This document shows positions 1,194 to 38,129 of a DNA stretch of 64,000 bases, piece by piece (position 1 is the stretch's first letter; every line of letters starts with the position of its first letter). The position numbers and the translations under genes are program-made. The notes below the pieces were generated by a model. The model was not told the DNA's origin. It worked only from the letters and a program-made list of their open reading frames with translations, and searched no databases. The DNA lies in contig JAXGZS010000004.1 in the NCBI GenBank assembly GCA_040776805.1, forward strand, positions 151,215 to 215,214, in the 5' to 3' direction. Source of the stretch: Clostridiales bacterium. Its GTDB lineage: Bacteria > Bacillota > Dehalobacteriia > UBA7702.

Positions 1194-1340
1194 CTCTTAC
1201 CACCTCACGATCTTTCCTTTATTTTAGCAAAAAGCTAAAAAATGTACAATACCTTTCATTTTCATGTAGCATTTTCCTTTTTTTTATGCTAAAATCGGAA
1301 CAGACAAATGGTTGTGACGTATCACAAGAAAGGGGAAAAA

Positions 1341-2735
1341 ATGAAACTCAAAAAACAACTTTTATTGTTCGCAGTATCTCTATTCTCACTATTATGGCTG
1401 GCCACAGGTGTTGGCGCAACCGTTACCGCGGAAACCGTCGCCGCAGCGGCAACGGCAGATTACACGCTGTTTTACGACAGCGAAGATGGCAAAATGTACA
1501 CGAGTGTTAACGAAAGCGGCAAGGGTACCACCGTCTACAGCGGCCAGAGCGACAAATGGAGTTCCGCCTATGACGCTGATTCAGACAGCTACATCCTGAC
1601 CTTAAAAGGCTTCTCTTTCACGACTTCGGCTCCTGACGCTCTGATTTTGCTCAAGGATACCAAGCTCTGCCTGGCCCAGGGCACCACCAACAGCCTCACC
1701 AGTACCTACAATGATGATGAATACGAAAGCACCGGCCTTTTGGCTTGCTACGACTTAACCATCTACAGCAACGGAAACGGTACCGGGAAGCTTGTCATCC
1801 AAGGGGGAACCTGCGACAACGACCAAGATAACTATTCCGACGGGATCTTCTGCGCCGGTACCCTGGCGGTAGAGAGCGGTGCCGTTGCGGCCTACGGCGG
1901 CGCTGATGCTGAATCATCGGGGATCGCCACCGTCGCCTTCCAATACTTTAGCGGAGATATCGTTGCCAAGGGCGGCTACAGCTTGTTTTTCCTCTCCAAT
2001 GAGCTGCCCCAGGTGATCAGCTATATCCCCGGAACCCTCTTCTACGGCGGCAGCAATGCCCAAAGCGTCTCTCAGCTTAGTGTTGAAAACGGCAGTGACG
2101 ATGACACCCTCTTTGATGATTATGCGTATCTCCATATTTATCATACCTTAAGCGACCTTCCCTATACTGCCTGGTATTATCAGAATATTACCACTCTGTT
2201 TGGAGAAAAAATCGTCACCGGTTATGCCAACAGCGATGGATTAAGCTATCAAATCAAACCTGCTAACTCCATTACGAGAGCGGAATTTGTAACGATTTTG
2301 GCGAGACTGATGGAAAGTGAAACCGATCTGGAACAATACGCCGGAAATTATTCCTTTACCGATGTTCCCGAATGGGCCTCAAAATATGTGGGTTGGGCCA
2401 AAGCGATGGGTTATGTAAACGGCATAGAGGAAACCCTCTTCGGCTCCAGCCGGAATATCACCAGAGAACAGATGGCCGCCATTCTCTACCGCGCCATCGT
2501 TGATATGGAACTAACCTCCAACTACAGCAATCCCGCCGTTACCTTCACCGATGAAAATAACATTGCCGATTACGCCAAAGACGCCGTTGCCGCCATGCAG
2601 AAAGACGGCATCATCAACGGCTACAGCAACGGCGACGGCAGCTTCCGCTTTATGCCCCAAGGCAATGCCACTAGAGCCGAAGCTTTCACGATGATCTACA
2701 ACTTCATCGACGCTTACATTGACCTTGAAGGATAA
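1341..2735 (+). CDS. S-layer-homology (SLH) domain cell-surface protein with signal peptide
   Basis: ATG at 1341 sits 8 nt after an AGGGG Shine-Dalgarno. N-terminus is MKLKKQLLLFAVSLFSLLWLATGVGA. The C-terminus carries three SLH-like repeats (ITRAEFVTILARLM, NITREQMAAILYRAI, NATRAEAFTMIYNF). An extended -10 (TGcTAAAAT) lies at about 1283-1296. Confidence 0.8.
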   Translation: MKLKKQLLLFAVSLFSLLWLATGVGATVTAETVAAAATADYTLFYDSEDGKMYTSVNESGKGTTVYSGQSDKWSSAYDADSDSYILTLKGFSFTTSAPDALILLKDTKLCLAQGTTNSLTSTYNDDEYESTGLLACYDLTIYSNGNGTGKLVIQGGTCDNDQDNYSDGIFCAGTLAVESGAVAAYGGADAESSGIATVAFQYFSGDIVAKGGYSLFFLSNELPQVISYIPGTLFYGGSNAQSVSQLSVENGSDDDTLFDDYAYLHIYHTLSDLPYTAWYYQNITTLFGEKIVTGYANSDGLSYQIKPANSITRAEFVTILARLMESETDLEQYAGNYSFTDVPEWASKYVGWAKAMGYVNGIEETLFGSSRNITREQMAAILYRAIVDMELTSNYSNPAVTFTDENNIADYAKDAVAAMQKDGIINGYSNGDGSFRFMPQGNATRAEAFTMIYNFIDAYIDLEG

Positions 2736-4606: not shown

Positions 4607-5578
4607 TTATGGTTTCAAGGAAAAGTGCCAGTATATTCTATACACTATGGCATGAATCAGCCTGCTGCGCAACAACAACCAAAGACTGATTCTGGCTTTT
4701 ATCGGGAATGCTTTCACTATTTTGGGGGTTTCCAGGGCTCTTACTTTTTCCACAACCTTTTGATAGAATTCATCCAATTGAGGTTTTGTATCTTTTCCGC
4801 GCAAAAGAATCGTATAAACCATCAGATGTACATACATCTCTTTACGCTGGCAGATTTCTTTTAAATCCGGGAATTGTTCCGCAATAAACGCCGTGCTCGC
4901 CTTGGTTGCGTTCACATAGCTGATTTCAAAAGCGTCCCCTTTTGTAATACTCCCCTGACGTTGTCTATAATAGTATTTTGGTGAAGAATCGTATACGATG
5001 CAGTTTGCCCTGGCAATGATTTTGGGAGTCACCAGAATGTCTTCAGCAAGGACACCGGAAGGGAAACGAATGCTCTGCAATAGATTGACATCAAATAATT
5101 TTCTGCACAAACTTTCGTCAAAATACCCAAAATCAACGATTTTTTCAAGGGCTTCTTGGGCGTTCATTTTTAAATAGGTATCGCCGACCCCTTCCTTTTG
5201 CGAACACTTTTCATAGACAAACCAGGTTCCGCAAATCGAAATCTGCGCGTTTTCTTTTTTCATATTATGGTACAACAGCTCCAGCATATCGGGAGCAATA
5301 TAATCATCGCTATCCACAAAGGTCACATATTGGCCCCGGGCAACGGCCAAAGCATGGTTTCTGGCATCGGAGATACCTTGATTCTCCTGATGAAGGACAC
5401 GAATCCGTTTATCCTGGGAGGCGTAGCGGTCACAGATTTCGCCGCTGTGATCCGGCGAACCATCATCCACAAGAATCAACTCAAATTCCCGGTACGTTTG
5501 GGCAAGGATAGAATCAATACACTCTTCCAGGTATTTCTCCACATTATAAACCGGCACAATGATACTGATCAAAACCAT
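4607..5578 (-). CDS. family 2 glycosyltransferase
   Basis: ATG at 5578 follows an AGGAAAGGA Shine-Dalgarno. Sequence SIIVPVYNVEKYLEECIDSILAQTYREFELILVDDGSPD ... FVDSDD shows the GT-A DxD signature. Confidence 0.8.
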   Translation of the reverse strand: MVLISIIVPVYNVEKYLEECIDSILAQTYREFELILVDDGSPDHSGEICDRYASQDKRIRVLHQENQGISDARNHALAVARGQYVTFVDSDDYIAPDMLELLYHNMKKENAQISICGTWFVYEKCSQKEGVGDTYLKMNAQEALEKIVDFGYFDESLCRKLFDVNLLQSIRFPSGVLAEDILVTPKIIARANCIVYDSSPKYYYRQRQGSITKGDAFEISYVNATKASTAFIAEQFPDLKEICQRKEMYVHLMVYTILLRGKDTKPQLDEFYQKVVEKVRALETPKIVKAFPIKARISLWLLLRSRLIHAIVYRIYWHFSLKP

Positions 5579-9521: not shown

Positions 9522-10406
9522 TCAATATCTGATTTTTCCTTCGGCCACGCGTTTTAAATGTTCGCCGTAAGGTGATTTGCCGTAGCGGCACGCCGATTCC
9601 TTCAGGGTTTCTTCACTGATCCAGCCGTTGATATAAGCAATCTCTTCCGGTGCGGAAATCTTAATGCTCTGGCGCATTTCAATCATGCGCACGAAATCCG
9701 CCGCTTCACTCAAAGAATTGACGGTGCCCGTATCAAACCAGGCAAAACCGCGACCCATCAACTCTACGTTCAATGCTTGATTCTCTAAATAGAGCCGGTT
9801 TAAGTCGGTGATCTCCAGTTCTCCCCTGGGGGAGGGTTTCACCTTTTTGGCCAGTTTGGCCACACGGTTATCGTAAAAATAAAGCCCGGTGAGGCAATAG
9901 TTGGATTTGGGGTTTTGCGGTTTCTCTTCCACCGATAAGACTTTGCCGTGTTCATCGAATTCCACAATCCCGAAACGCTCCGGATCCGAGACGTAATAAC
10001 CGAAGACCGTCGCAATGCCTTTTTCGGCATTCCCCACGGCGTTTCTCAGCATGGAACGAAAACCGTTGCCGTAAAAGATATTATCCCCTAAAATCATGGC
10101 ACAGCAGTCGTCGCCGATAAACTCTTCCCCGATCAAAAAGGCTTGGGCCAATCCGTCGGGAGAGGGCTGCACCTGATAGGAAAGGCGAACGCCGTATTGA
10201 GTGCCGTCGCCCAAAAGTTTTTCAAAATTCGGCAGATCCTCCGGGGTAGAGATGATCAAAATATCCCGAATCCCCGCCAGCATAAGGGTGGATAGAGGGT
10301 AATACACCATGGGTTTATCGTATACCGGCAACAGCTGTTTCGATGTTACCATGGTGAGGGGGTAAAGTCGCGTACCGGCGCCACCGGCTAAAATGATACC
10401 TTTCAT
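9522..10406 (-). CDS. rfbA: glucose-1-phosphate thymidylyltransferase
   Basis: [18 protein letters not shown] nucleotidyltransferase motif. Length 294 aa. Confidence 0.9.
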
Positions 10407-11365
10407 TGTTTCTCTCCCGTTTGCGTATGATGACGGTCATTCCCAAAACAAATTAACCATATATCACAGATTAAACTTTTCCAGCGAATGGTACCATAAC
10501 TGCCATACAATTTCAGCAGGGACAGCAGCTTTCTGTGTCGGATCAACTGCATTCGCTGTTGATGAAACGCATGCTTTGCTTTGATTTTTTCGTTCCCTTC
10601 CAATAAGGGTAAATCAGCGGCCAAAAGCTCCGAAAGTATGCGATCATAATGGACCATTTCCGTAAGTTTTCGTCTCAAATTCAATAGTTTCTTAATGCGG
10701 TGTTCTTCTCCGGCAGTATTATTCCCATGCCTCCGGTGATCGCAACCGCAATACTTATACTCAAAAAAACATCCTTTTTCCGCGGCAAAAAGCGCAAAAA
10801 TGAGATCATGGGGCACGGACAACTGACGGTAATACGAAGATGTCTCCTCAAAAAAGGAACGGCGCAACGCCATCGTCATCCCAGGCCAACGATAAGAATA
10901 CAAAATATCATCGGTGGAAACGGACTCTAATTCTTCGCTCAACGACGACGACTCAATCATGAAACCGTGGAGTGGCTGATCGTTTTCATCAATCACACCA
11001 AAATTGCAGCTGAGCACCGCAACTTCGGGATGAGTAGAAAAAACAGTGGCCATTTTCTCAATTTTATCCTCCCGCCACAGGTCATCCTGATCCGATAAGA
11101 AAATCAGCTCTGCGGAGGATAAAGAAATCGCGTAATAAAAATTTTGGACATAACCGAGGTTTGTCGCATTGCGGTATAGCTTCCAATTCGCTTCAAGGCG
11201 GCGGGAAGTGATAAAATCGTTGATGATGGCCACGGAATCATCATTGGAACCGTCATCGCAAATGATAACCTCATCTGCTTTTCGGCTTTGGTTATAAATA
11301 GAAGCCAATTGCTTTTCAATGAACCTCTCACCGTTATAGACCGCGATGACAACAGCGATGTGCAT
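10403..11365 (-). CDS. family 2 glycosyltransferase (rhamnosyltransferase-like)
   Basis: [25 protein letters not shown] ... [10 protein letters not shown] ... LSDQDD are GT-A motifs. The start overlaps the rfbA end. Confidence 0.75.
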
Positions 11366-16141: not shown

Positions 16142-16354
16142 TCATCCCCTCCCTTTTCTTTTCGCGTCCCGCTCCCGCACAGCGTCGATAACAACGTCTT
16201 CCAGAGCGTTGTTGATACTGGCGGTCACCGGCTTTTCATCTTCTCTCAGTTGCTTTGTGACCTGGTCAAAACAGTGGTTGCAGTAATATTCCTCCCGCAC
16301 AAGATAGGCTTTGCCGGGAGCAATGCGCTGGCTGCAATTTTTACAAATCAACAT
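16142..16354 (-). CDS. small zinc-ribbon protein (CxxC ... CxxC)
   Basis: 70 aa, MLICKNCSQRI...YYCNHCFD. A strong AAGGAGG Shine-Dalgarno lies 7 nt upstream of the ATG. Confidence 0.55.
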   Translation of the reverse strand: MLICKNCSQRIAPGKAYLVREEYYCNHCFDQVTKQLREDEKPVTASINNALEDVVIDAVRERDAKRKGRG

Positions 16355-16642: not shown

Positions 16643-17389
16643 ATGATTTTACCGTTTCAACATATCAAAAACGGCCGCGAACTCGGCGGCCTGACCGCCG
16701 CTGACGGCAAAAAGACAAAATGCCGCCTGCTTTTGCGCACAGGAGAGCTCTTTGCCGCCGATGAGAAGGAAATTCTATCCTTGCGTGAGGATTATAAGAT
16801 CAAAACCGTCATTGATTTCAGAGATATCAGCGAATGTGAAATACGCCCCGATAAAGAGATCCCCGGCGCCGTCTACCACCAGATTCCCATCTTACCGCCG
16901 CAGCCGCAAGAGATCCGCGAAAATCTGATGACCAGGCTCATGCATGAACCCAAAGCCACGTTTTTACGGATCTATGAACACATCGCCGAAAACAGTGACG
17001 CCGCCGCCGCTTACCAAAAATTCTTCCAGGTCGTCCTTGAAAATCGGGGCGTCCCCCTGCTCTACCATTGCCGCCAGGGGAAAGACCGTACCGGCATTGC
17101 CTCCATTCTGCTTTTATCCGCCCTCGGCGTGCCGAAAGAAGAGGTGCTCAAGGATTATTTTCTCACCAACGAACTGTTAAAAGCCGATTATGAAGCGCTG
17201 AAAGCCCAGGGTACCCCGGAAGAGCAGCTAGAAAAGGCCAGGGATATCTTATTTGTCATGGAGGAGTGCGTCCATAGCTATCTTGGGCTGTTGAAAAAAA
17301 ATTGGGGCAGTGTGGACGGATATCTCCAAGGCGCCCTCTGCCTGGGGAAAGGAGATTTAAAGACACTCCGCGCCATTTATACCGAATGA
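16643..17389 (+). CDS. protein-tyrosine phosphatase (CX5R dual-specificity/PTP superfamily)
   Basis: Active-site loop YHCRQGKDRTGIAS. An AAAGGAGAAAAAC Shine-Dalgarno precedes the start. Confidence 0.8.
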   Translation: MILPFQHIKNGRELGGLTAADGKKTKCRLLLRTGELFAADEKEILSLREDYKIKTVIDFRDISECEIRPDKEIPGAVYHQIPILPPQPQEIRENLMTRLMHEPKATFLRIYEHIAENSDAAAAYQKFFQVVLENRGVPLLYHCRQGKDRTGIASILLLSALGVPKEEVLKDYFLTNELLKADYEALKAQGTPEEQLEKARDILFVMEECVHSYLGLLKKNWGSVDGYLQGALCLGKGDLKTLRAIYTE

Positions 17390-17445
17390 GCGCTAAAAAA
17401 ACTTGTCCCCGTCATTCATGAATTTCATCCACTTTATCAAAGAAA

Positions 17446-17506
17446 GGGTGTCCTTTGGGCTTTTTACGCCTTGCGGGACACCCCGTTCCGTTCCGGGTGC
17501 TTTTTC
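17446..17506 (+). terminator. putative terminator after the tyrosine phosphatase gene
   Basis: Two overlapping GC-rich hairpins (gggtgtcc...ggacaccc and caccccg...cgggtg) followed by cttttt. Confidence 0.45.
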
Positions 17507-17539
17507 CGATAATACCAGTAACAAAAAAGAGGCCTTTTT

Positions 17540-17555
17540 CATATTGTACAATATG
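17540..17555. promoter_or_regulatory. perfect 16-bp palindrome CATATTGTACAATATG, a candidate operator overlapping the promoter of the Cys-rich gene
   Basis: The sequence is its own reverse complement. It lies 24-39 nt upstream of the 17579 ATG and is embedded in an AT-rich, promoter-like stretch. Confidence 0.4.
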
Positions 17556-17578
17556 AAAATCATTAAAGGAGGCCCCAA

Positions 17579-17923
17579 ATGAGCAGAAAATGTTGCGGAA
17601 ATTGTTCCTCGAATTCCTGCGGCTGCAACAGATGCGGATGTGGGTGTGGTAATGGCTGTGATTGTGGCTGCGGATGTGGGTGTGGTAATGGCTGTGATTG
17701 CGGCGGCGGCTGTGGATGCGGCAACTGCACAGGTTGCTTTGGCTGCTGCGATTACAGTTGTGTCTTAAGTTCCATCTATAATGTCTATACGCTCCAATAC
17801 CTCGCGTCAATCTTGTACGCTTTCTTAGGTTGCGGGTTCACAGGTCCGTGCAGCCCCTGTTGTCCCTGCGGCATACCGGGACCCGGTCCCTGCCCCTGTA
17901 ACAGCGGCGTCGCCGCCCAGTAA
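17579..17923 (+). CDS. cysteine/glycine-rich repeat protein with a (CG)n-type array and a C-terminal hydrophobic segment; candidate metal-binding protein
   Basis: AAAGGAGG Shine-Dalgarno 7 nt upstream. 114 aa, about 30% Cys. CGCGCGNGCDCG occurs twice from a 36-nt tandem duplication at 17634-17705. A hydrophobic stretch IYNVYTLQYLASILYAFLG follows, and the protein ends CSPCCPCGIPGPGPCPC. Confidence 0.6.
   Translation: MSRKCCGNCSSNSCGCNRCGCGCGNGCDCGCGCGCGNGCDCGGGCGCGNCTGCFGCCDYSCVLSSIYNVYTLQYLASILYAFLGCGFTGPCSPCCPCGIPGPGPCPCNSGVAAQ
17777..17803 (+). repeat. left copy of a roughly 27-bp direct repeat (atgtctatacgctccaatacctcgcgt) inside the Cys-rich ORF
   Basis: About 22 of the first 24 nt match the copy at 18816-18843. 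Both copies encode the peptide NVYTLQYL. Confidence 0.7.
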
Positions 17924-17932
17924 AGCAAGGCC

Positions 17933-18238
17933 ATGGAAGCGGAAAAGACCGTTGACTTAAACCCTTTTGGTGACGGTATCTCCGGTGCAGGCACACCTTG
18001 GGCAGATACATTCCGCCTTGAGGGGCCGAGCGAAAACATTCCTTGGGACAGTGCAAATGGCTGCGCCGGGCGATGGCAGGGCAATCCTTATGATGATATC
18101 TCCTGGGATTGTACTCCCTGGTGGTATATCCCCTGCCATAACGGCGCGCCATGGTACGCACAGTTTTTGGTTAGCGTCTATGCTTATGAGACCTGTGTCC
18201 ATTCGCTATGCTGTCTTTTCCGTCGCCCGGAGGGTTGA
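17933..18238 (+). CDS. hypothetical Trp/Pro/Gly-rich small protein, possibly co-transcribed with the Cys-rich gene
   Basis: 101 aa ORF that starts 10 nt after the upstream stop. Sequence includes PWADTF...PWDSANGCAGRWQGNPYDDISWDCTPWWYIPCHNGAPWY. It lies between the Cys-rich gene and the terminator at 18282. The Shine-Dalgarno is weak. Confidence 0.35.
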   Translation: MEAEKTVDLNPFGDGISGAGTPWADTFRLEGPSENIPWDSANGCAGRWQGNPYDDISWDCTPWWYIPCHNGAPWYAQFLVSVYAYETCVHSLCCLFRRPEG

Positions 18239-18281
18239 CAATGCTGCCCGTGTCAAAAAGGAAATGAGGAGATATGATGAC

Positions 18282-18309
18282 AAAAACCCGGCTTTGCCGG
18301 GTTTTTTTA
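18282..18309 (+). terminator. rho-independent terminator
   Basis: aaaaa cccggc ttt gccggg ttttttt. Confidence 0.8.
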
Positions 18310-18430
18310 TAGTAACTCGAATTTCAGCGCGTTTATCCCAAAAATCAATGGTGTATCAAAAGGAGCGCTCTTGAAAAAAAAGCGTTTTTCTGATAAGATA
18401 ATATTATACTAACGTTAAGGAAGGTTCACC

Positions 18431-18814
18431 ATGAATATCTATGAATCCGGAGAAGATTATCTGGAAACGATCCTGATGTTAAAAGAACGCAACGGCAATG
18501 TCCGCTCCATCGATATCGCCCACGAAATGAATTTCAAAAAGCCCAGCGTTAGCTACGCGATGAAACAGTTTCGGGAAAACGGTTACATTTTTGTGGATGA
18601 GGACGGCTTTATCCATTTGACGGAAAGCGGAGAACAGATCGCCAAGCGGGTTTACGAACGCCACCGTGTTTTGACGCAGCTTTTGCTTTTCCTCGGTGTG
18701 TCAAAGGAAAACGCCAAAAAAGACGCGTGTAAAATTGAGCACGACCTCAGTGAGGAGACCTTTGATTGCATCAAGGGCTATCTCATGAAAAGCGGGGTCA
18801 AAATCAAGCTTTAA
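18431..18814 (+). CDS. DtxR/MntR-family metal-dependent transcriptional regulator (short MntR-like form without an SH3-like domain)
   Basis: 127 aa. An N-terminal winged-helix region EDYLETILMLKERNGNVRSIDIAHEMNFKKPSVSYAMKQF is present. Metal-site-like residues are conserved (D/E near position 10, H in YERHRVL, E..EH in KIEHDLSEE). AAGGAAGG Shine-Dalgarno upstream. Confidence 0.8.
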   Translation: MNIYESGEDYLETILMLKERNGNVRSIDIAHEMNFKKPSVSYAMKQFRENGYIFVDEDGFIHLTESGEQIAKRVYERHRVLTQLLLFLGVSKENAKKDACKIEHDLSEETFDCIKGYLMKSGVKIKL

Positions 18815-18815
18815 A

Positions 18816-18843
18816 ATGTCTATACGCTTCAATATCTATAGTC
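18816..18843 (+). repeat. right copy of the direct repeat (aatgtctatacgcttcaatatctatag), immediately after the regulator stop codon
   Basis: In frame it reads N V Y T L Q Y L stop. This duplicates a coding fragment of the Cys-rich gene. Confidence 0.7.
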
Positions 18844-18862
18844 TATCCGTAGGTGTACGCAA

Positions 18863-18890
18863 GAGTCCCCTCCATAGGGGACTCTTTTTT
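18863..18890 (+). terminator. rho-independent terminator
   Basis: gagtcccc tccata ggggactc tttttt. Confidence 0.8.
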
Positions 18891-18894
18891 ACAT

Positions 18895-19311
18895 TCAGGT
18901 GTGTGACGCGCCGAAAAAGCGCGCGATTTCAATTTTGGCGTTTTCGGCGGAATCGGCTCCGTGAATGATATTTTCCGAGGTGCAAAAGGCAAAGTCACCC
19001 CGGATGGTGCCGGCGGCGGCGTCCTCCACCTTCGTCGCCCCCATCAGGCTGCGCACACCCTTTACGGCGTTTTCCCCTTCCACGATCATGGCGAGGACCG
19101 GACCGGAGGTCATAAAGCGCAAAACTTCGGGAAAGAAGGGAAAATCGGCGATATGGGCGTAGTGTTCCCGTAAAACCGCCTCATCAAGGAGGATCATCTT
19201 TGCGTCGGTAATGCGGTATCCCTTGTTTTCAATTCTTGTGATCACCTGCCCCATCAAGCCCCTCTTGACGCAATCGGGTTTCAGCATCACATAGGTTTTT
19301 TCAATGGCCAT
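18895..19311 (-). CDS. ndk: nucleoside diphosphate kinase
   Basis: ERTYVMLKPD-like start (EKTYVMLKPDCVKRGL) and the NIIHGSD-like active-site region (NIIHGADS). Length 138 aa. Confidence 0.9.
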   Translation of the reverse strand: MAIEKTYVMLKPDCVKRGLMGQVITRIENKGYRITDAKMILLDEAVLREHYAHIADFPFFPEVLRFMTSGPVLAMIVEGENAVKGVRSLMGATKVEDAAAGTIRGDFAFCTSENIIHGADSAENAKIEIARFFGASHT

Positions 19312-29163: not shown

Positions 29164-31684
29164 TTAGCTTTTATTTTCTATCGTCATTATCAATCGATAG
29201 ATGATCGTAGCCACCTCTGCTCTGGTGGCATGATCTTGCGGGCAGAACTGTACGCTGGTCTTGCCGTTCACGATGCCGGCCCGCTGCATCAAGGTAACGC
29301 TTTCCTTGGCCCAGGACGAAATACGCTCATCATCGGCAAAGGCGATTTTATCATACTTCAGCGGTATTTGAATGGAATTCTTCTGTAAATAACGCTGGAG
29401 CATCGTTACAAGGGCTTCTCTCGTAATGGGCGCATTAGGAGAAAACTTATTGTTTCCGGTACCGTTGGTGATGCCCTCTGCCACCCCCCAAATCACTCCA
29501 TCAGTATACCAGACGTTGTCGGCAACATCACTAAATTGATTTCCGCTTTGCTCCACCGGAGATCCGCCGGCATAACGGTATAAAACGGTTACAAACATGG
29601 CCCGGGTCATTTGATCATTGGGGGCGAAGCGACGATCCCCCACACCAAAAAAAAGCTGCTGTTTGACGACGAAATTCACGCCCGGCGTATACCAGGCGTC
29701 CTCTTTTACGTCGTCAAAGACCATTAGCCAGCCGGCATAAAGCGTCGTATCCGCTTTGACAGCGGTATCGAAATCATATGGGTGATTCCACTCTTTATCA
29801 CTGTACCAGCCGGTAAACCCATAGCCGCTGCGCTGAGGAGCGGTGGGAGCTGTGACATTGCTTCCGTTGGCTACCACTCTGGTCGTTACCGAGCTGCCGC
29901 CGCAGGAGTCAAAATAGACGTTACAATATGAGGAAGCGACTTTCAACGCGTCTACACGGCCGTAACCATAAATGAAATCAAAGCCCGTATTACCGAGATC
30001 TACCGCCTTATTTAACAGTACTGTACGAATTTCCGCCGCGCTTAAAGATGGAAATCTGGATTTCACAAGGGCCGCCACCGCCGCCACATGGGGAGAGGCG
30101 GCGCTGGTACCGTAAAAGGGGCTGGAGAACCCTCCCGCACCGGTCACGGCAACCCCATCCACACCGCAAATATCGGGTTTTTCCCGTGTTCCCGAAATCA
30201 TCGTGACCGGGCCCCGGGAGGAGAAGTCTTCGATGGAATTGGGTGTCGCCACATTGATGGCGCCGCAAGCCAATACGCCGGGAACCGCGGGATGTCCAAA
30301 AATAGAATCCTGTGCCACCAGATTATCAGTTAAGGAATACGCGTTGCCATCATAGTAAAGATACACTTCCAAAATGTCTGCGCTGTTTCCCAAGGCGGCA
30401 TGAACATAAAAATCCGCCAGAATATCTTTGCCGGAAGAATTATCATAATAAATGATTTCCGTTGGAATACCCGTTGTTGTATTATGATCAACGGAACAGC
30501 CCAGCATAGCGCCGGTATGGTAATTTGTCAACGCGATATCATAATCACTGGTTACGTTTCCTATGGGATCGTTCCATTGCAAAATAACCGTTACCCCCGA
30601 GTTTGCCGGGATGACCATATATAAGTCTTCGTCATCCGAGGCGCCGTGACTAAAATCGTGAAAATCGTAAGCGCTGCGATAAAAATTCCCTTGATAATGA
30701 TTTTTACCGTAATTTCCGGCAGAAGAAACGAAGAGAACCTTTCCCTGATCGGAGATTTTTTTTACATGTTGCGCAACCACGCCGTCTTCAAAGAAGGGTT
30801 CGCTAATCCAACCGATATCATCACATATGATATCACAACCGGCTGCAACGAGATCGTCAATGCCGCGGTTAAAAGCGAGGACGTTCGTCCCGCAATCATG
30901 AAAATACAATTTTGCGCCCGGGGCGATATCATGGATAATCTCCAGCATTGCTGTGCCTTCGTCCCCGCTGCAAGTATTGCTCAAAACCGAAACAGAGCTG
31001 GGCAGATCACCTTTGGCGACTGCCGCTGAAAGATGATCAACACCGTCGGAAATCACCCCGATTTTCACGCCGGTTCCGTCCACACCATAGGTACTTCTCA
31101 TTTGGGCGGCTTTTAAGATACTGTCCCCGGCAGTAACCACAGATCCCGCGTTAACTTTGGGACGGACGACCTCCGTCACACTGCAAACCGCGTCAAGGGC
31201 GGCGACCGCTGCCAATTGATCCACAGCGACCCAGGCGGCCGCCAAACCGCTTGCTTCATCATAATCTTCCAGTGACAAGAGATAAGGCTCTAAGGCTTCC
31301 AGGTTATCCCCGCTACATAGCCTTATGTATACATAAACGCCGGTTTCCCTTGAAGCCGAAGCACCGTTGCTGATGGGCTTTTCGCTGATTTGCCCCTGCT
31401 CTTTCATTTCCTTCCATACATCGGACATTGTCTTGCCCTCGGGTAAATAAGCGTCATTCACAAGAGGCTGCAAGGTGCTGGACAATTTCGCCGCAGAAGA
31501 GTCGGCGTTCTTCCATTTCCTCTGCCATAAACGGCAAAAAGGTGCTCTCCTCCGCAGCTTTGACTGATGGTAATGACAAAGCGGAAAACTGATTGAGGGA
31601 GATTGCGGCGGACAATCCCGCCGGAAGCAACAACCAACCAAATGCAATCATTGTCATTCCCAAAAACCAAAACCATTGTTTCAT
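29164..31684 (-). CDS. SLH-anchored subtilisin-like serine protease (S8). The signal peptide (ORF 31454-31774) is out of frame with the body (ORF 29164-31647), so a frameshift lies within 31454-31647
   Basis: The body has the S8 catalytic regions (GVKIGVISDGVD; HGT...; SGTSAASPHVAAVAAL) and three C-terminal SLH repeats. A separate frame upstream encodes MKQWFWFLGMTMIAFGWLLLPAGLSAA with a GGGGGA Shine-Dalgarno. Confidence 0.6.
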
Positions 31685-32104
31685 GATGTATCCCCCGTTA
31701 GCCTGTAAATCATTGGCCTTTTGAAGAAGAATCGGCGCCGCCGAAATGGCTCTGTCATCAGCGCCGCAAAGCAATCAAAAACCGCTCTATTCCCCTGGTT
31801 CTGCCGGCCTTTTTAAATAATTGTTCGTACTCTCATCTTACGAAAGCATAACACAAAAAAACCCGCAAGTAAACATTTTTATCAGAAATCTGCCTCGCTC
31901 CCTTAGGCATCCCGGGACGATACGAACGACAAGCATCAAGACAATTTCAGACAGGATACCACCGTATTATCCAAGTTCACGGGTGCTTTAAACTTGGCAT
32001 AAAAGAATCCGCACGGCTACTTTCCGATTACCGTCTGCTGCAGACAGGGCAAAAGGAAACCGGTCAGCCCAAATCGAAAAAATGAATTTTTGTATTTTCC
32101 GTCC

Positions 32105-32184
32105 GGTTTTGCTTTATCAAAAAGGGAGGGCCGGTTTTCACCGGCCCGGAGGGCGGCAGAGGCCGGGGGATAGGATCCCGGCCT
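32105..32184 (-). terminator. tandem GC-rich hairpins plus a U-tract downstream of the giant surface-protein gene
   Basis: gaggccggg...cccggcctc, then gggccgg ttttca ccggccc followed on the minus strand by TCCCTTTTTG. Confidence 0.55.
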
Positions 32185-32212
32185 CTACCGGAGGGTAGAT
32201 GCTCTTTTAGGC

Positions 32213-35200
32213 TTAGTGAGGCCAAACGATGTTCGGCTTCAATGCCGTCCAGGTTTCGGTTCCGTCTTCGTTGCGTTCGTAATAGTGGCTGTTCGTCGCT
32301 TCCTGCATTGCCAGGTAATACCATTTCGTCGTATCCATGTTATCGGGCCAGACGATCATACCTAAGAGCAGCGCTTCCGGAGAAGCAGGAATACGATTCA
32401 ACACATTATTGATCAACGTAACCGCTTCAGCACGGGTGATGTAGAGATCGGGCCGGAACGAATGGTCTTCATAGCCTTTAACCCAACCGTTGTTGGCGGC
32501 AATATTGATTTCGTCTTCCGCCCAATGCCCTGCAATATCCGTAAAATCGGTGGGCGTTGTATCACCGCTGCCGTCAAACCTGGCGGCGATGGCGGCAAAT
32601 TCCGCTCTGGTGATGTATCCGTTGGGATGGAACGTATTATCCGGATAACCCTTTACAATATTCAGTGCACGCAGAGTCAGTACTGCTGTGCTGTACCAAG
32701 CTCCATCGGGGACATCGCTGAAAGAATTGGAGCTTGTAGAATAGGCATCGCTGGCTTTTTCTGTCAGCAAGCGGTAGAAGATCGTCGCAACCTCGGCACG
32801 GGTGATATTTCTTCCCGGTCCAACGTTCCCGTCCGGATAACCGATGATATACGCGAAGTGATCTTCATCGTTGAGTAAGGGGTTGATGGTAAAATCAGCG
32901 GGAATGACAGTAACATCGTAGTTGCTGTTTTCGGTGTAGCCCGCGGTGATGACTCCGGTGTAGGTACCGGCGTCTTCCGCCGAGTTCGTGCGGTAATAGA
33001 AAACAGTACCAAGATCACCTGCATTGACCAAACCGTCAATGGTACCGCCAAAGCTCGGATCGGCTTCGCCGACGAATTTATCGGCATCGTTTACGGTAAT
33101 CGTCACAGGTTTCATCGTTACAATCAAGGTGCCGCTGTTCACAGTAACATATGGGTACGTACCTTCCGTAGTGATATCATAATCAGCAAGGTTAACGGCG
33201 AAACCGACGTTGGTGATGCTGCCGGTAACGGTGACGGTGATTTCATCGCCGTTCGGTAAGAAGTATTTGCCTTCCCCGTCCGCCGTAACCGGCGCGCCGT
33301 CACAAGTAATGGTGAAACCATCGTCGCTGTGGGAAGCGCCGTCATAGGTCCAGCTGTTGCTGTTTGCCGTAATCACGATGATGTTATCGTTTTCGATGAT
33401 GATCGGCATGGAGATCGTGAAGTCACCGGGAACGATTGTAACATCGTAATTGGTGTTGGCGGTATAGTCGGCGGTCAGCACATCGTCATAGGTGCCGACG
33501 GCTTCGTCACTGTTGGTACGGGAATAGCTAACGGTGCCCAAATCATCACCGTTCACGAGGCCGTTCACGGTACCGCTGAAAGTAGGATCAGGATCACCCA
33601 CCGTTTTCCCTGCGTCATTTACGGTAATCGTAACCGCTTTTGCCGTCACGGTCAGGACACCGTCGGTGGCGGTAACGTCGCTGTAGTTTCCTTCATTTTC
33701 CAGGGTGTAAGCGACGCTGTTGGCCGCAGTACCGACGTCGGTGATGCTGCCGGTAACGGTGACGGTAATTTCATCACCGGTGGGTAAGAAGTATTTGCCG
33801 TCCCCGTCCGCCGTGACTGCCGCGCCGTCGTAGGTAACGGTGAAACCGTCGTCGCTGTGGGAAGCGCCGTCATAGATCCAGCTGTTGCTGTTTGCCGTAA
33901 TCACGATGGGGTTTTCATCGGCAGTGATCGTGAAGTCTCCGGGGACAACCGTTACATCGTAATTGGTGTTGGCGGTATAGTCGGCGGTCAGTACGTCGTC
34001 ATAGGTGCCGACGGCTTCGTCGCTGTTGGTGCGGGAATAGCTGACGGTGCCCAAATCATCACTGTTCACGAGACCGTCCACAGTACCGCTGAAGGCGGGA
34101 TCCGCCGTGCCGTACACTTTATCCGCGTCGTTTACGGTAATCGTAACTTCTTTTGCCGTCACGGTCAGGACACCGTCGGTGGCGGTAACGTCGCTGTAGT
34201 TTCCTTCATTTTCCAGGGTGTAAGCGACGCTGTTGGTCGCAGTACCGACGTCGGTGATGCTGCCGGTAACGGTGACGGTGATTTCATCACCGGTGGGTAA
34301 GAAGTATTTGCCGTCCCCGTCCGCCGTGACTGCCGCGCCGTCGTAGGTAACGGTGAAACCGTCGTCGCTGTGGGAAGCGCCGTCATAGATCCAGCTGTTG
34401 CTGTTTGCCGTAATCACGATGGGGTTTTCATCGGCAGTGATCGTGAAGTCTCCGGGGACAACCGTTACATCGTAATTGGTGTTGGCGGTATAGTCGGCGG
34501 TCAGTACGTCGTCATAGGTGCCGACGGCTTCGTCGCTGTTGGTGCGGGAATAGCTGACGGTGCCCAAATCATCACCGTTCACGAGGCCGTCCACGGTACC
34601 GCTGAAAGTAGGATCAGGATCACCCACCGTTTTCCCTGCGTCATTTACCGTAATCGTAACTTCTTTTGCCGTCACGGTCAGGACACCGTCGGTGGCGGTA
34701 ACGCCGCTGTAGTTTCCTTCATTTTCCAGGGTGTAAGCGACGCTGTTGGCCGCAGTACCGACGTCGGTGATGCTGCCGGTAACGGTGACGGTGATTTCAT
34801 CACCGGTGGGTAAGAAGTATTTGCCGTCCCCGTCCGCCGTGACTGCCGCGCCGTCGTAGGTAACGGTGAAACCGTCGTCGCTGTGGGAAGCGCCGTCATA
34901 GATCCAGCTGTTGCTGTTTGCCGTAATCACGATGGGGTTTTCATCGGCAGTGATCGTGAAGTCTCCGGGGACAACCGTTACATCGTAATTGGTGTTGGCG
35001 GTATAGTCGGCGGTCAGTACGTCGTCATAGGTGCCGACGGCTTCGTCGCTGTTGGTGCGGGAATAGCTGACGGTGCCCAAATCATCACCGTTCACGAGGC
35101 CGTCCACGGTACCGCTGAAGGCGGGATCCGCCGTGCCGTACACTTTATCCGCGTCGTTTACCGTAATCGTAACCGCTTTTGCCGTCACGGTCAGGACACC

Positions 35201-35701
35201 GTCGGTGGCGGTAACGTCGCTGTAGTTTCCTTCATTTTCCAGGGTGTAAGCGACGCTGTTGGTCGCAGTACCGACGTCGGTGATGCTGCCGGTAACGGTG
35301 ACGGTGATTTCATCACCGGTGGGTAAGAAGTATTTTCCGTCCCCGTCCGCCGTAACCGCCGCGCCGTCGTAGGTAACGGTGAAACCGTCGTCGCTGTGGG
35401 AAGCGCCGTCATAGATCCAGCTGTTGCTGTTTGCCGTAATCACGATGGGGTTTTCATCGGCAGTGATCGTGAAGTCTCCGGGGACAACCGTTACATCGTA
35501 ATTGGTGTTGGCGGTATAGTCGGCGGTCAGCACGTCGTCATAGGTGCCGACGGCTTCGTCGCTGTTGGTGCGGGAATAGCTGACGGTGCCCAAATCATCA
35601 CTGTTCACGAGGCCGTCCACGGTACCGCTGAAGGCGGGATCCGCTGTGCCGTACACTTTATCCGCGTCGTTTACGGTAATCGTAACTTCTTTTGCCGTCA
35701 C
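32213..35701 (-). CDS. C-terminal 1162-aa intact portion of the giant SLH-domain surface protein (5.5 copies of a 171-aa repeat plus three SLH repeats)
   Basis: The repeat unit TAKEVTITVNDADKVYGTADPAFSGTVDGLVNxDDLGTVSYSRTNSDEAVGTYDDVLTADYTANTNYDVTVVPGDFTIT... looks like an MBG-type adhesin-associated domain. The C-terminus carries NITRAEVATIFYRLL and ITRAEFAAIAARF SLH motifs. Confidence 0.75.
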   Translation of the reverse strand: MTAKEVTITVNDADKVYGTADPAFSGTVDGLVNSDDLGTVSYSRTNSDEAVGTYDDVLTADYTANTNYDVTVVPGDFTITADENPIVITANSNSWIYDGASHSDDGFTVTYDGAAVTADGDGKYFLPTGDEITVTVTGSITDVGTATNSVAYTLENEGNYSDVTATDGVLTVTAKAVTITVNDADKVYGTADPAFSGTVDGLVNGDDLGTVSYSRTNSDEAVGTYDDVLTADYTANTNYDVTVVPGDFTITADENPIVITANSNSWIYDGASHSDDGFTVTYDGAAVTADGDGKYFLPTGDEITVTVTGSITDVGTAANSVAYTLENEGNYSGVTATDGVLTVTAKEVTITVNDAGKTVGDPDPTFSGTVDGLVNGDDLGTVSYSRTNSDEAVGTYDDVLTADYTANTNYDVTVVPGDFTITADENPIVITANSNSWIYDGASHSDDGFTVTYDGAAVTADGDGKYFLPTGDEITVTVTGSITDVGTATNSVAYTLENEGNYSDVTATDGVLTVTAKEVTITVNDADKVYGTADPAFSGTVDGLVNSDDLGTVSYSRTNSDEAVGTYDDVLTADYTANTNYDVTVVPGDFTITADENPIVITANSNSWIYDGASHSDDGFTVTYDGAAVTADGDGKYFLPTGDEITVTVTGSITDVGTAANSVAYTLENEGNYSDVTATDGVLTVTAKAVTITVNDAGKTVGDPDPTFSGTVNGLVNGDDLGTVSYSRTNSDEAVGTYDDVLTADYTANTNYDVTIVPGDFTISMPIIIENDNIIVITANSNSWTYDGASHSDDGFTITCDGAPVTADGEGKYFLPNGDEITVTVTGSITNVGFAVNLADYDITTEGTYPYVTVNSGTLIVTMKPVTITVNDADKFVGEADPSFGGTIDGLVNAGDLGTVFYYRTNSAEDAGTYTGVITAGYTENSNYDVTVIPADFTINPLLNDEDHFAYIIGYPDGNVGPGRNITRAEVATIFYRLLTEKASDAYSTSSNSFSDVPDGAWYSTAVLTLRALNIVKGYPDNTFHPNGYITRAEFAAIAARFDGSGDTTPTDFTDIAGHWAEDEINIAANNGWVKGYEDHSFRPDLYITRAEAVTLINNVLNRIPASPEALLLGMIVWPDNMDTTKWYYLAMQEATNSHYYERNEDGTETWTALKPNIVWPH

Positions 35702-36725
35702 GGTCAGGACACCGTCGGTGGCGGTAACGTCGCTGTAGTTTCCTTCATTTTCCAGGGTGTAAGCGACGCTGTTCGCCGCAGTACCGACGTCGGTGATGCT
35801 GCCGGTAACGGTGACGGTGATTTCATCACGGTGGGTAAGAAGTATTTGCCGTCCCCGTCCGCCGTGACTGCCGCGCCGTCGTAGGTAACGGTGAAACCGT
35901 CGTCGCTGTGGGAAGCGCCGTCATAGATCCAGCTGTTGCTGTTTGCCGTAATCACGATGGGGTTTTCATCGGCAGTGATCGTGAAGTCTCCGGGACAACC
36001 GTTACATCGTAATTGGTGTTGGCGGTATAGTCGGCGGTCAGTACGTCGTCATAGGTGCCGACGGCTCTGTCGCTGTTGGTGCGGGAATAGCTGACGGTGC
36101 CCAAATCATCACTGTTCACGAGACCGTCCACAGTACCGCTGAAGGCGGGATCCGCCGTGCCGTACACTTTATCCGCGTCGTTTACGGTAATCGTAACTTC
36201 TTTTGCCGTCACGGTCAGGACACCGTCGGTGGCGGTAACGTCGCTGTAGTTTCCTTCATTTTCCAGGGTGTAAGCGACGCTGTTGGTCGCAGTACCGACG
36301 TCGGTGATGCTGCCGGTAACGGTGACGGTGATTTCATCACCGGTGGGTAAGAGTATTTGCCGTCCCCGTCCGCCGTGACTGCCGCGCCGTCGTAGGTAAC
36401 GGTGAAACCGTCGTCGCTGTGGGAAGCGCCGTCATAGATCCAGCTGTTGCTGTTTGCCGTAATCACGATGGGGTTTTCATCGGCAGTGATCGTGAAGTCT
36501 CCGGGACAACCGTTACATCGTAATTGGTGTTGGCGGTATAGTCGGCGGTCAGTACGTCGTCATAGGTGCCGACGGCTTCGTCGCTGTTGGTGCGGGAATA
36601 GCTGACGGTGCCCAAATCATCACCGTTCACGAGGCCGTCCACGGTACCGCTGAAGGCGGGATCCGCCGTGCCGTACACTTTATCCGCGTCGTTTACCGTA
36701 ATCGTAACCGCTTTTTTTTTGATAT
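32890..36725 (-). repeat. 513-bp tandem repeat array, about 7 near-identical units plus one degenerate unit, in coding sequence
   Basis: The periodicity shows in the ORF track (33652, 34165, 34678, 35191 and so on). Units are above 95% identical at the nucleotide level. Confidence 0.9.
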
Positions 36726-38129
36726 CAAGAGTCCCCGGCACATAGTTAATATTGATATGACTTGTAACGTCCGTGGTACCATTCTTCACCGTTGCAGTTC
36801 CCTGAAACGTGCCATCATAGCTGCTTACATCGGTGCCTTCCGCCGTATAAGTAATTCCCGTAACAGTGTAGCCTGCGGGTAAACCCTCGACATCATAGTC
36901 CGTCAAGCTTTGCTGGCTTCCGTTATAGATTAAGCTGGAACTGTCTCCGATAATCACAATGGATTTACTGTAAGTATATTTAACGTCAATGGTGGATGTC
37001 GTATCGGCGGCGGTAACGGTAAACGTCACGGTGCCGTCGGCAGCCACCTGATAATCTGTGATGCCGGTAACGGTAACACCCGTGTAAGACCAGGTGCCTT
37101 CCGGTACCGTAGGTCCTGTGGTTGCGGGAGTAAAGGTGTAATCACCTTCCGGTAATCCGCTCAAGGTCGTTGGTACTGACTGGGCGTAATCGTATTGATT
37201 GGCAATGTCTCCATAAGCATGAGTAACATCAATGCCGCCGGATACGGTATAAGGTGTTGAGCTAAGACCAAAACCGCCGTCACCCATGAATAATATAACG
37301 GAAAGCGTAATCACGGTAGCATGGTCCATCGGGGCTTTGATGACAATCCAATGTTGATCATTATGAGGAATGGTTGTCCCCGCGTTAAGCACACGGACAT
37401 CGTTTTCATAAATCTGTAAATTTTTCCCGGTTTCAATGTCATAAACATCTGCTTCAATGTTGCCGATGATCTCGGTACCGTTAACAAGGACAGATTTCAA
37501 ATTGAGATCATACACTTGTTTTGCGGCATCAAGCGCGATGTATGTACTGCCGTTATACTGCCAGATGTACATTGCCTCGTTCTTGCCGTTGGTAGAGTGA
37601 CCATCAAGTTCATAGACATTGGTCTCCGTCAAAAATATACCTTCACCGGGATCCATAATCACTTCAGCTTTTGCGGGTAAAGATGAGAAAGTAAGTAGTA
37701 ATGTCATCACCAAAAGAATCGCGAAACTCGATTTCTTCATTTTGCTCCCCTCCTTCGTTTTTTTCAGCAAAATGGTTTCTCTTTGTCCATTGGGAAACTT
37801 TGCGGTTCTTTCATTTTTGCTTTTGTCGCCGGCATCTTTCTTGCCTTGTTGTACCATTTCCCCCTCACCGTTTTTACAGTGTTTTATGGGTTTTCCTGCG
37901 TCCGGGAAAAGTGTCATCTTTTTGTGAAACAATCGGCCATTCCTTTCGATAGGCTTGCGGTAAAATGATGACCACCCCCTTTTTTACGATATGCAAAGTT
38001 TCTATTATTATCATCATAATAATTGATAATAACGTTTTGCGCATGGCCCATAGGGTATCAATCCTTAAAAAAAAACAAACCGGATAAAAAAGTATCACGG
38101 CTTGTAAAATATTATGATGTACCGGTCGT

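Follow-up and report, generated by a model that had tools for sequence, protein, structure and literature searches.

We analyzed a 64,000-nucleotide stretch of a Clostridiales bacterium genome (contig JAXGZS010000004.1; the whole stretch is called the window here), in which a short gene for a cysteine- and glycine-rich protein, termed gene A, is followed by a small partner gene, gene B. We propose, with a probability of roughly 0.55, that the two genes encode a structural spore-surface protein (of the coat, crust or exosporium) restricted to this lineage, which would be produced late in the mother cell and cross-linked through its cysteines. This reading is favored by a conserved sigma-K-type promoter, cysteine-rich repeats, varied genomic neighborhoods, and a profile resembling that of CdeC and CdeM of C. 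difficile. A first-pass annotation of the same DNA had preferred a regulated metal-sequestering protein and had named a disulfide-cross-linked structural protein, such as a spore coat or exosporium protein, as the alternative; the evidence, including the sigma-K-type promoter, favors the latter.

The element upstream of gene A (Table 1) is conserved in 16 of 16 distinct homologues, in which it reads GT[A/C]AC - 17 nt - CATAnnnTA - 16-17 nt - AAAGGAGG - 6-9 nt - ATG. The spacer between the -35 and -10 blocks varies in sequence while its length is fixed at 17 nt. Conserved blocks at a fixed spacing, separated by a spacer of free sequence, are the signature of a promoter. The pattern GTMAC-N17-CATANNNTA occurs once in the window (0.01 matches expected by chance) and exactly once in every related locus (22/22), always about 30 nt upstream of the ATG of the gene A homologue. 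Start-site-mapped sigma-K promoters of C. difficile read GTAACA...N...CATAnnnTA, as in cdeC (CD1067; GTAACAATTAAGATTATAAAAGCATAGTA), CD3613 (GTAACAAAATCGCATCCATTTAAATATTGTA), cotA, cotE, dpaA and others (Saujet 2013, Table S7), and in that species the 'AC' of the -35 element marks sigma-K whereas 'ATA' marks sigma-E (Saujet 2013). From this match we infer that the element upstream of gene A is a sigma-K-type promoter and that sigma-K would use it. The first-pass annotation had expected a metal-regulated gene, and the conserved element is of the sigma-K type rather than a metalloregulator operator.

Other signals were observed around this promoter. Every species has a second conserved block, ATGA(A/T)AA, about 12 nt after the -10 element; this block probably represents the transcription start or part of the leader. 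A sigma-A promoter was rejected as the main promoter, since the TACAAT that overlaps the -10 element occurs only in the clade of the window and is not conserved elsewhere. The -10 element is also overlapped by a perfect 16-nt palindrome, CATATTGTACAATATG, at 17540-17555, with partial versions in the clade of loci L001, L009, L015 and L017 and with CATACCATATACCATGA or similar sequences in other clades. This palindrome was considered as an MntR operator and rejected, since partial copies occur in species without an MntR neighbor and it is absent in other clades. An Rfam scan of 17300-18950 returned no RNA family.

The plus-strand frame of gene A is under strong purifying selection. Over 32 core codons from 15 species, the variable columns number 9, 5 and 32 at codon positions 1, 2 and 3, and the mean pairwise differences are 4.1, 1.4 and 17.0, respectively; the third positions are thus saturated while the core peptide stays invariant as the DNA diverges. 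The 114-aa open reading frame reported by the first-pass annotation is therefore real, and the canonical Shine-Dalgarno sequence noticed with it, AAAGGAGG, is unchanged in 16/16 distinct homologues. Since low-complexity repeats yield long open reading frames on both strands, a TGY/GGN-rich repeat might have produced a spurious frame here, with the His-rich frame on the reverse strand (17412-17810), which had been raised as a possible expressed product, or nothing at all being expressed instead. The 9/5/32 pattern eliminates this mirror frame, whose third positions are the second positions of the plus frame, i.e., the most conserved ones. In addition, the third positions of the plus frame differ at a mean of 17 of 32 codons, the core peptide is invariant despite this divergence, and the homologues also conserve the promoter, the ribosome-binding site and the start codon. 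We consider a spurious frame next to impossible.

The product of gene A contains 29 Cys (25.4%), 25 Gly (22%), no His, and six charged residues, so that the earlier estimate of about 30% Cys was right in describing a very Cys- and Gly-rich protein and too high in its figure. All family members share the same anatomy, namely an MSR or MSK start, a hypervariable Cys/Gly N arm, an invariant core, and a hypervariable Cys/Gly C arm. The core has the consensus CF.C.D.SCVLSSIYNVY.LQYLASIL..LG.G, an aromatic/hydrophobic stretch of about 30 residues that includes 5 Tyr and 3 Phe. Across the family, the proteins are 83-155 aa long with 20-31% Cys, 17-38% Gly, 5-17 CxC motifs, and 0-1 His. The C-terminal Pro/Cys tail CSPCCPCGIPGPGPCPC, already pointed out in the first reading of the sequence, is present and is peculiar to the genus of the window. 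The 36-nt tandem duplication in the N arm is likewise real, with its coordinates one base off from those first given (17634-17669 and 17670-17705). Tandem Repeats Finder (TRF) reports 17633-17715 with a period of 36, 2.3 copies and 93% matches, and a repeat search aligns 17633-17668 with 17669-17704 at 97% identity. The close relative L008 (102 aa) has one copy of the 12-aa repeat, and L007 and L019 have two diverged copies. Judged from these differing copy numbers, the Cys/Gly arms evolve by repeat gain and loss.

The searches for homologues of gene A yielded 8 protein clusters, 12 GTDB species genomes, and 4 metagenome contigs, the metagenome scan contributing only these 4 loci. All carriers are uncultured 'Peptococcaceae/Clostridiales/Firmicutes' (Dehalobacteriia) metagenome-assembled genomes (MAGs) from gut, rumen, and anaerobic digesters, among them DLGE01 ('UBA7702'), CALFRX01, GCA_024712465.1, GCA_040766505.1, CAZWWH01, and CAKUYE01. 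Searches with Pfam-A (hmmscan with the window protein at E up to 1 and with nine family members at E up to 0.1) returned only a spurious TrAA12 match, NCBIfam gave no match, and a PDB sequence search gave chance matches only. An exhaustive hidden Markov model (HMM) search of 1.84 billion representative proteins retrieved four clusters, all of the same family, and thus gene A has no distant annotated relatives among them. The first-pass annotation had not recognized the family, which was correct, and these searches, which it had proposed, point to no family outside this one. By these searches, gene A defines a tiny, lineage-restricted, previously undescribed family that belongs to no curated family.

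By tblastn, gene B lies directly downstream of the gene A homologues in L007, L008, L006/L010, and L011. Its place next to gene A is conserved in the genus of the window and in the clade of L006, L011, and L021 (tblastn, E 1e-7 and 2e-5). It can likewise be read in L019 and L021, and in L012, L013, L016, and L022 gene A is followed by weaker look-alikes. Its conserved C-terminal motif is G(A/P)xWYAQxLVxxYAY...(I/L)CCLF. By codon position, close relatives vary at 8/15/23 columns and the core at 13/7/22, a third-position bias that supports the reading frame of gene B. A search for homologues of gene B returned one cluster, which is unannotated. Paralogy of gene A and gene B was rejected as unproven (hhalign probability 1.6%, not significant). 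The hairpin after gene B has a folding energy of -17.9 kcal/mol with a z-score of -4.27 against shuffles. Terminator hairpins also follow gene A or gene B in other species, and in four clades that lack gene B the terminator comes directly after gene A. As predicted from this arrangement, genes A and B are a two-gene operon of their own, closed by a strong terminator. As a separate observation, the gene-B-like frames in L013 (about 5320-5500) and L022 (about 10230-10420) carry an in-frame TAG (..G*GG..), located identically in the two species, that separates a good Shine-Dalgarno sequence with ATG from the conserved C-terminal motif and could reflect an internal start, stop-codon readthrough, or decay.

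Table 1. Positions of gene A, gene B, mntR and associated elements in the window.
Feature	Position	Strand	Details
Sigma-K-type promoter (predicted)	17518-17548	+	-35 GTAAC at 17518-17522; 17-nt spacer; -10 CATATTGTA at 17540-17548
Shine-Dalgarno sequence of gene A	17565-17572	+	AAAGGAGG, read in the sequence; 6 nt before the ATG of gene A
Gene A, Cys/Gly-rich protein	17579-17923	+	ATG start; 114 aa
Gene A, N arm			residues 1-52
36-nt tandem duplication in the N arm	17633-17704	+	12 aa, CGCGCGNGCDCG; TRF and repeat search
Gene A, invariant core	17735-17836		residues 53-86
Gene A, C arm			residues 87-114
Gene B, Trp/Cys-containing small protein	17933-18238	+	101 aa; 9 nt downstream of gene A
Predicted intrinsic terminator at the end of the A-B operon	18282-18308	+	AAAAACCCGGC-UUU-GCCGGGUUUUU and U-tract; RNA fold
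Promoter of mntR (predicted)	18371-18399	+	sigma-70-like with TG extension
mntR, short DtxR/MntR-family regulator	18431-18814	+	Pfam Fe_dep_repress and Fe_dep_repr_C
Degenerate second copy of gene A core DNA	18812-18847	+	81% identical to 17777-17812

Gene A shows several features of the class of sigma-K-dependent, cysteine-rich spore-surface proteins, namely a sigma-K-type promoter (by sequence match), a high Cys content with short repeats, and no enzymatic domain. Within this class, CdeC and CdeM of C. difficile are Cys-rich exosporium proteins that are monocistronic, sigma-K-driven, lineage-restricted, and repeat-containing, and that have unrelated flanking genes (PMC6101409). The gene A family resembles them in being Cys-rich with short low-complexity Cys repeats (CNCCNCCRK and NGNNGGNNNNC in CdeC/CdeM), in its sigma-K-type promoter, in its unrelated neighbors (about ten contexts), and in its narrow lineage. 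In contrast, there is no detectable sequence homology. CdeC and CdeM have about 9% Cys in 161-405 aa, whereas the family has 20-31% Cys in 83-155 aa, a Cys density 2-3 times higher, and the two C. difficile proteins have no counterpart of the invariant hydrophobic core or of gene B. CotY/CotZ of the B. subtilis crust and ExsY/CotY of the B. cereus group exosporium are Cys-rich, self-assembling, disulfide-stabilized proteins of the outermost layer that are made late in the mother cell (PMC6101409). The gene A product shares their Cys richness and, as proposed, a role in a spore layer. However, it has no Pfam match to the CotY/ExsY family, and those proteins are folded, about 150-160 aa long and of moderate Cys content, whereas gene A is mostly low-complexity and predicted to be disordered. 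We therefore lean, at slightly better than even odds, toward regarding gene A as a non-homologous analogue of CdeC, CdeM, CotY, and ExsY with a different, core-plus-arms design. A more distant likeness, in function by analogy only, is to the ultra-high-sulfur keratin-associated proteins of mammalian hair, which have 20-35% Cys, are Gly-rich, change quickly in repeat number, and form a disulfide-cross-linked matrix. They are proteins of eukaryotes without sequence relationship to the gene A family, in which no match to a Pfam model of the Keratin_B2 type was found.

A possible mechanism follows from the spore-surface reading. Late in sporulation, the mother cell would transcribe genes A and B from the sigma-K-type promoter, and gene A would be translated efficiently from its consensus ribosome-binding site. 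The protein, which lacks a signal peptide, would then be deposited on the developing spore; the lack of a signal peptide and of a convincing transmembrane segment fits deposition from the mother-cell cytoplasm. The invariant aromatic/hydrophobic core of about 30 residues would serve as a self-assembly or docking module, while the low-complexity Cys/Gly arms, expanding and contracting by repeat slippage, would supply dozens of thiols. After lysis of the mother cell, or on exit from the reducing cytoplasm, the arms would form intermolecular disulfides and possibly metal-thiolate bridges. We infer the spore localization, the disulfide chemistry, and the role of the core from the features described above. 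With regard to sporulation of the host lineage, the support is indirect: the window is 96% identical at the protein level to the MAG 'Peptococcaceae bacterium UBA7702', and UBA7702 is an order within the class Dehalobacteriia (PMC10327494). The sole isolate of this class, Dehalobacterium formicoaceticum, is spore-forming and possesses the full complement of genes for sporulation (PMC5597755).

Several points weigh against the spore-surface reading. Motif scans for SASP, SpoVS, and AbrB/SpoVT, together with Pfam searches of 10 window frames and 10 locus frames, found no sporulation gene, either in the window or across the roughly 165 kb of related loci. The Pfam searches instead returned S-layer, flagellar, polysaccharide, peroxiredoxin, and Ca/Na exchanger genes, and thus the sporulation capacity of the carrier MAGs is extrapolated from their class. 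Coat proteins usually evolve fast, whereas the core of gene A is invariant. The sigma-K motif was compared with promoters of C. difficile, and a -35 GTAAC also resembles the -35 elements of extracytoplasmic function (ECF) sigma factors, although the -10 CATA...TA does not. Structure prediction, which the first-pass annotation had suggested as a check, was carried out with AlphaFold2 on a six-sequence alignment and was uninformative, as the model is unusable (mean pLDDT, the predicted local distance difference test score, of 37; pTM, the predicted template modeling score, of 0.18). Finally, 3 of about 20 flanking genes concern metal homeostasis (MntR, MntP, and CsoR), an enrichment with an estimated, post hoc p of about 0.01-0.02.

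These metal genes bear on the alternative that the product of gene A is a cytoplasmic, metallothionein-like buffer or store, whose CxC-rich arms would bind Zn, Cu, or Cd as thiolate clusters and whose expression would be tied to metal homeostasis. The 5-17 CxC motifs and 20-31% Cys of the homologues agree with it, and metal genes adjoin gene A in three clades. In the window, a DtxR/MntR-family gene does lie downstream of gene A on the same strand, as first noted (its best NCBIfam matches are to MntR, below the equivalog cut-offs). An MntP manganese exporter gene adjoins the homologues in L013 (5796-6359) and L022 (10783-11346), and a convergent gene for a CsoR-family metal-sensing repressor lies beside the homologue in L016 (4452-4751, minus strand). 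However, the pairing of gene A with MntR, which had suggested regulated metal sequestration, does not hold up. Gene B and the terminator at 18282-18308, neither of which the first-pass annotation had noticed, stand between the two genes, and since mntR also has a separate promoter, gene A is not expected to be co-transcribed with it. Moreover, when the homologues were inspected for co-localization with DtxR/MntR genes, which the first-pass annotation had named as a check, MntR was found beside gene A only in the genus of the window (the window, L007, and L008) and in none of about nine other contexts. About ten different genomic contexts were seen in all, with no conserved partner gene: PTP phosphatase, A B, MntR (the genus of the window only); GidB-EamA, A, PALP enzyme; YitT, A B, racemase; RapZ-YvcK-WhiA, A B', MntP; AEC transporter, A B', CsoR-family repressor; AsnB, A; and further ones. 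Seven of the other contexts hold no metal gene.

The remaining metal neighbors may be coincidence or a weak metal link. This signal is weakened because mntP in L022 has a sub-threshold yybP-ykoY Mn riboswitch of its own (RF00080, at 10518-10696, with 23.4 bits and E 4e-4), because the CsoR gene is convergent, and because thiolates are poor ligands for Mn2+, a hard cation. The protein itself also departs from the bacterial metallothioneins SmtA/BmtA and MymT. Gene A is like them in being small, in its many CxC motifs, and in a plausible ability to bind soft metals. In contrast, it has no HMM match, no His ligands, and no conserved metalloregulator partner, while it has a longer chain, a Cys content 2-3 times higher, a large invariant core whose 5 Tyr and 3 Phe are atypical for metallothioneins, and a sporulation-type promoter in place of a palindromic operator. 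No metallothionein Pfam model matched any tested member even at E<0.1. Membership of gene A in the SmtA/BmtA metallothioneins was thus rejected on profile match, ligand set, and regulator linkage, and the first description of the protein as metallothionein-like is not supported. We consider a metal buffer unlikely, and treat metal binding as the leading alternative, or as a further property of the product, rather than as the primary reading.

Two further alternatives concern the core and the arms. The core is the most hydrophobic part of gene A, AlphaFold places helices at residues 54-65 and 69-84 (pLDDT below 50), and helix-helix packing would fit the invariance of the core. These points are consistent with a small membrane-anchored protein, in which the core would span, for example, the cell membrane or the outer forespore membrane as a transmembrane helix with a Cys/Gly arm on each side, and whose function would be other than coat structure. 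However, the probable membrane-spanning segment of the first-pass annotation is not borne out by Kyte-Doolittle hydropathy, and the protein has neither a signal sequence nor a convincing transmembrane segment. The best 19-residue mean is 1.36, under the usual transmembrane threshold of 1.6. The segment holds Ser, Asn, Gln, Thr, and 5 Tyr, and lacks flanking positive charges, and the confidence of the AlphaFold model is too low for use. We consider membrane anchoring improbable. The Cys/Gly/Ser-rich low-complexity stretches also resemble the core peptides of thiazole/oxazole-modified microcins (TOMMs), and one locus (L015) has a radical-SAM-like frame about 3.7 kb upstream, as might be expected if gene A encoded the precursor of a ribosomally synthesized and post-translationally modified peptide (RiPP), either a heterocycloanthracin-type TOMM or a SCIFF/ranthipeptide-type Cys-rich peptide. 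In contrast, no NCBIfam match to the SCIFF or heterocycloanthracin models was found, no conserved cyclodehydratase (YcaO) or radical-SAM gene lies beside gene A in the roughly ten contexts, no transporter is linked to it, and its conserved part is central and not an N-terminal leader. We give a RiPP precursor very little credence.

An interrupted allele of gene A was also observed. The homologue of gene A in locus L018 (2430-4216; Peptococcaceae MAG HRGM_Genome_4028) breaks off within the core, behind ...NVYTLQYL. Homology to L016 stops at L018 2681, with the sequence ...CAATATCT/ATAGT (the slash marks the break). After the break there is a terminator-like hairpin and then a convergent gene for a 505-aa large serine recombinase (Resolvase, Recombinase, and Zn_ribbon_recom), so that the insert looks like an intervening element or prophage. 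The 3' half of this homologue was not found within the 5 kb available, and a scan of viral contigs for the junction sequence gave 0 matches. In the window, a 36-nt degenerate copy of core DNA follows directly after the mntR stop codon and reads NVYTLQYL-stop. It shares the CTATAGT junction (CAATATCT/ATAGT) with the interrupted allele, is conserved in L008, and is decayed in L007. The two core copies (17777-17812 and 18812-18847) bracket 1035 bp that comprise the 3' part of gene A, gene B, and mntR. The second copy may be a recombination or attachment-site scar. Together, the L018 interruption and this copy hint that the core DNA may be a recombination target, and the position of mntR a by-product of such an event. 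The sigK gene, a known mother-cell gene, is interrupted likewise by skin, and the comparison lends slight support to the spore-surface reading.

A bolder extension of the spore-surface reading, which we regard as a long shot, is a new spore armor module of strict anaerobes. The aromatic core would polymerize, possibly together with gene B, while the Cys/Gly arms would stay reduced, and perhaps metal-loaded, in the gut and would turn into a disulfide network in air, i.e., an oxygen-triggered hardening. In addition, the core codons would act as the attachment site of a serine-recombinase element whose excision would take place in the mother cell, on the model of skin and sigK. This attachment-site idea is hinted at by the interrupted L018 allele and the 36-nt scar at 18812-18847.

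Elsewhere in the window, a 70-aa frame with CxxC...CxxC lies at 16142-16354 on the minus strand, upstream of a tyrosine phosphatase gene. It has a weak LIM/zinc-ribbon match (E 7e-4) and is 94-100% conserved in L007 and L008, as expected of a small unannotated zinc-ribbon protein. A cluster of very large surface proteins occupies 29164-37932 (minus strand) and includes an 826-aa subtilase-SLH protein, a 1161-aa protein with 6 MBG_2 repeats and SLH, and a 488-aa MBG_2 protein; a further SLH protein is encoded at 1308-2735 (plus strand). These SLH-domain proteins suggest an S-layer-bearing Gram-positive envelope. The window also holds a dTDP-rhamnose/polysaccharide cluster (about 3-15 kb) and a large flagellar and chemotaxis regulon (22-28 kb and 43-64 kb).

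How anaerobic bacteria of the gut and of digesters withstand oxygen, disinfectants, and passage from host to host is decided by their spore surface layers, whose proteins are specific to their lineage and, beyond Bacillus and C. difficile, largely unknown. If the spore-surface reading is true, gene A would provide the uncultured Dehalobacteriia-type Firmicutes with their first candidate component of the coat or exosporium, and with 20-31% Cys its family would be among the most cysteine-dense bacterial proteins described. If instead the metal hint is true, gene A would represent a new type of bacterial metallothionein. The combination of a conserved core with freely expanding Cys/Gly arms would be a compact model for joining self-assembly with covalent cross-linking. 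In addition, the conserved promoter would serve as a ready sigma-K motif by which late sporulation genes of these MAGs could be annotated.

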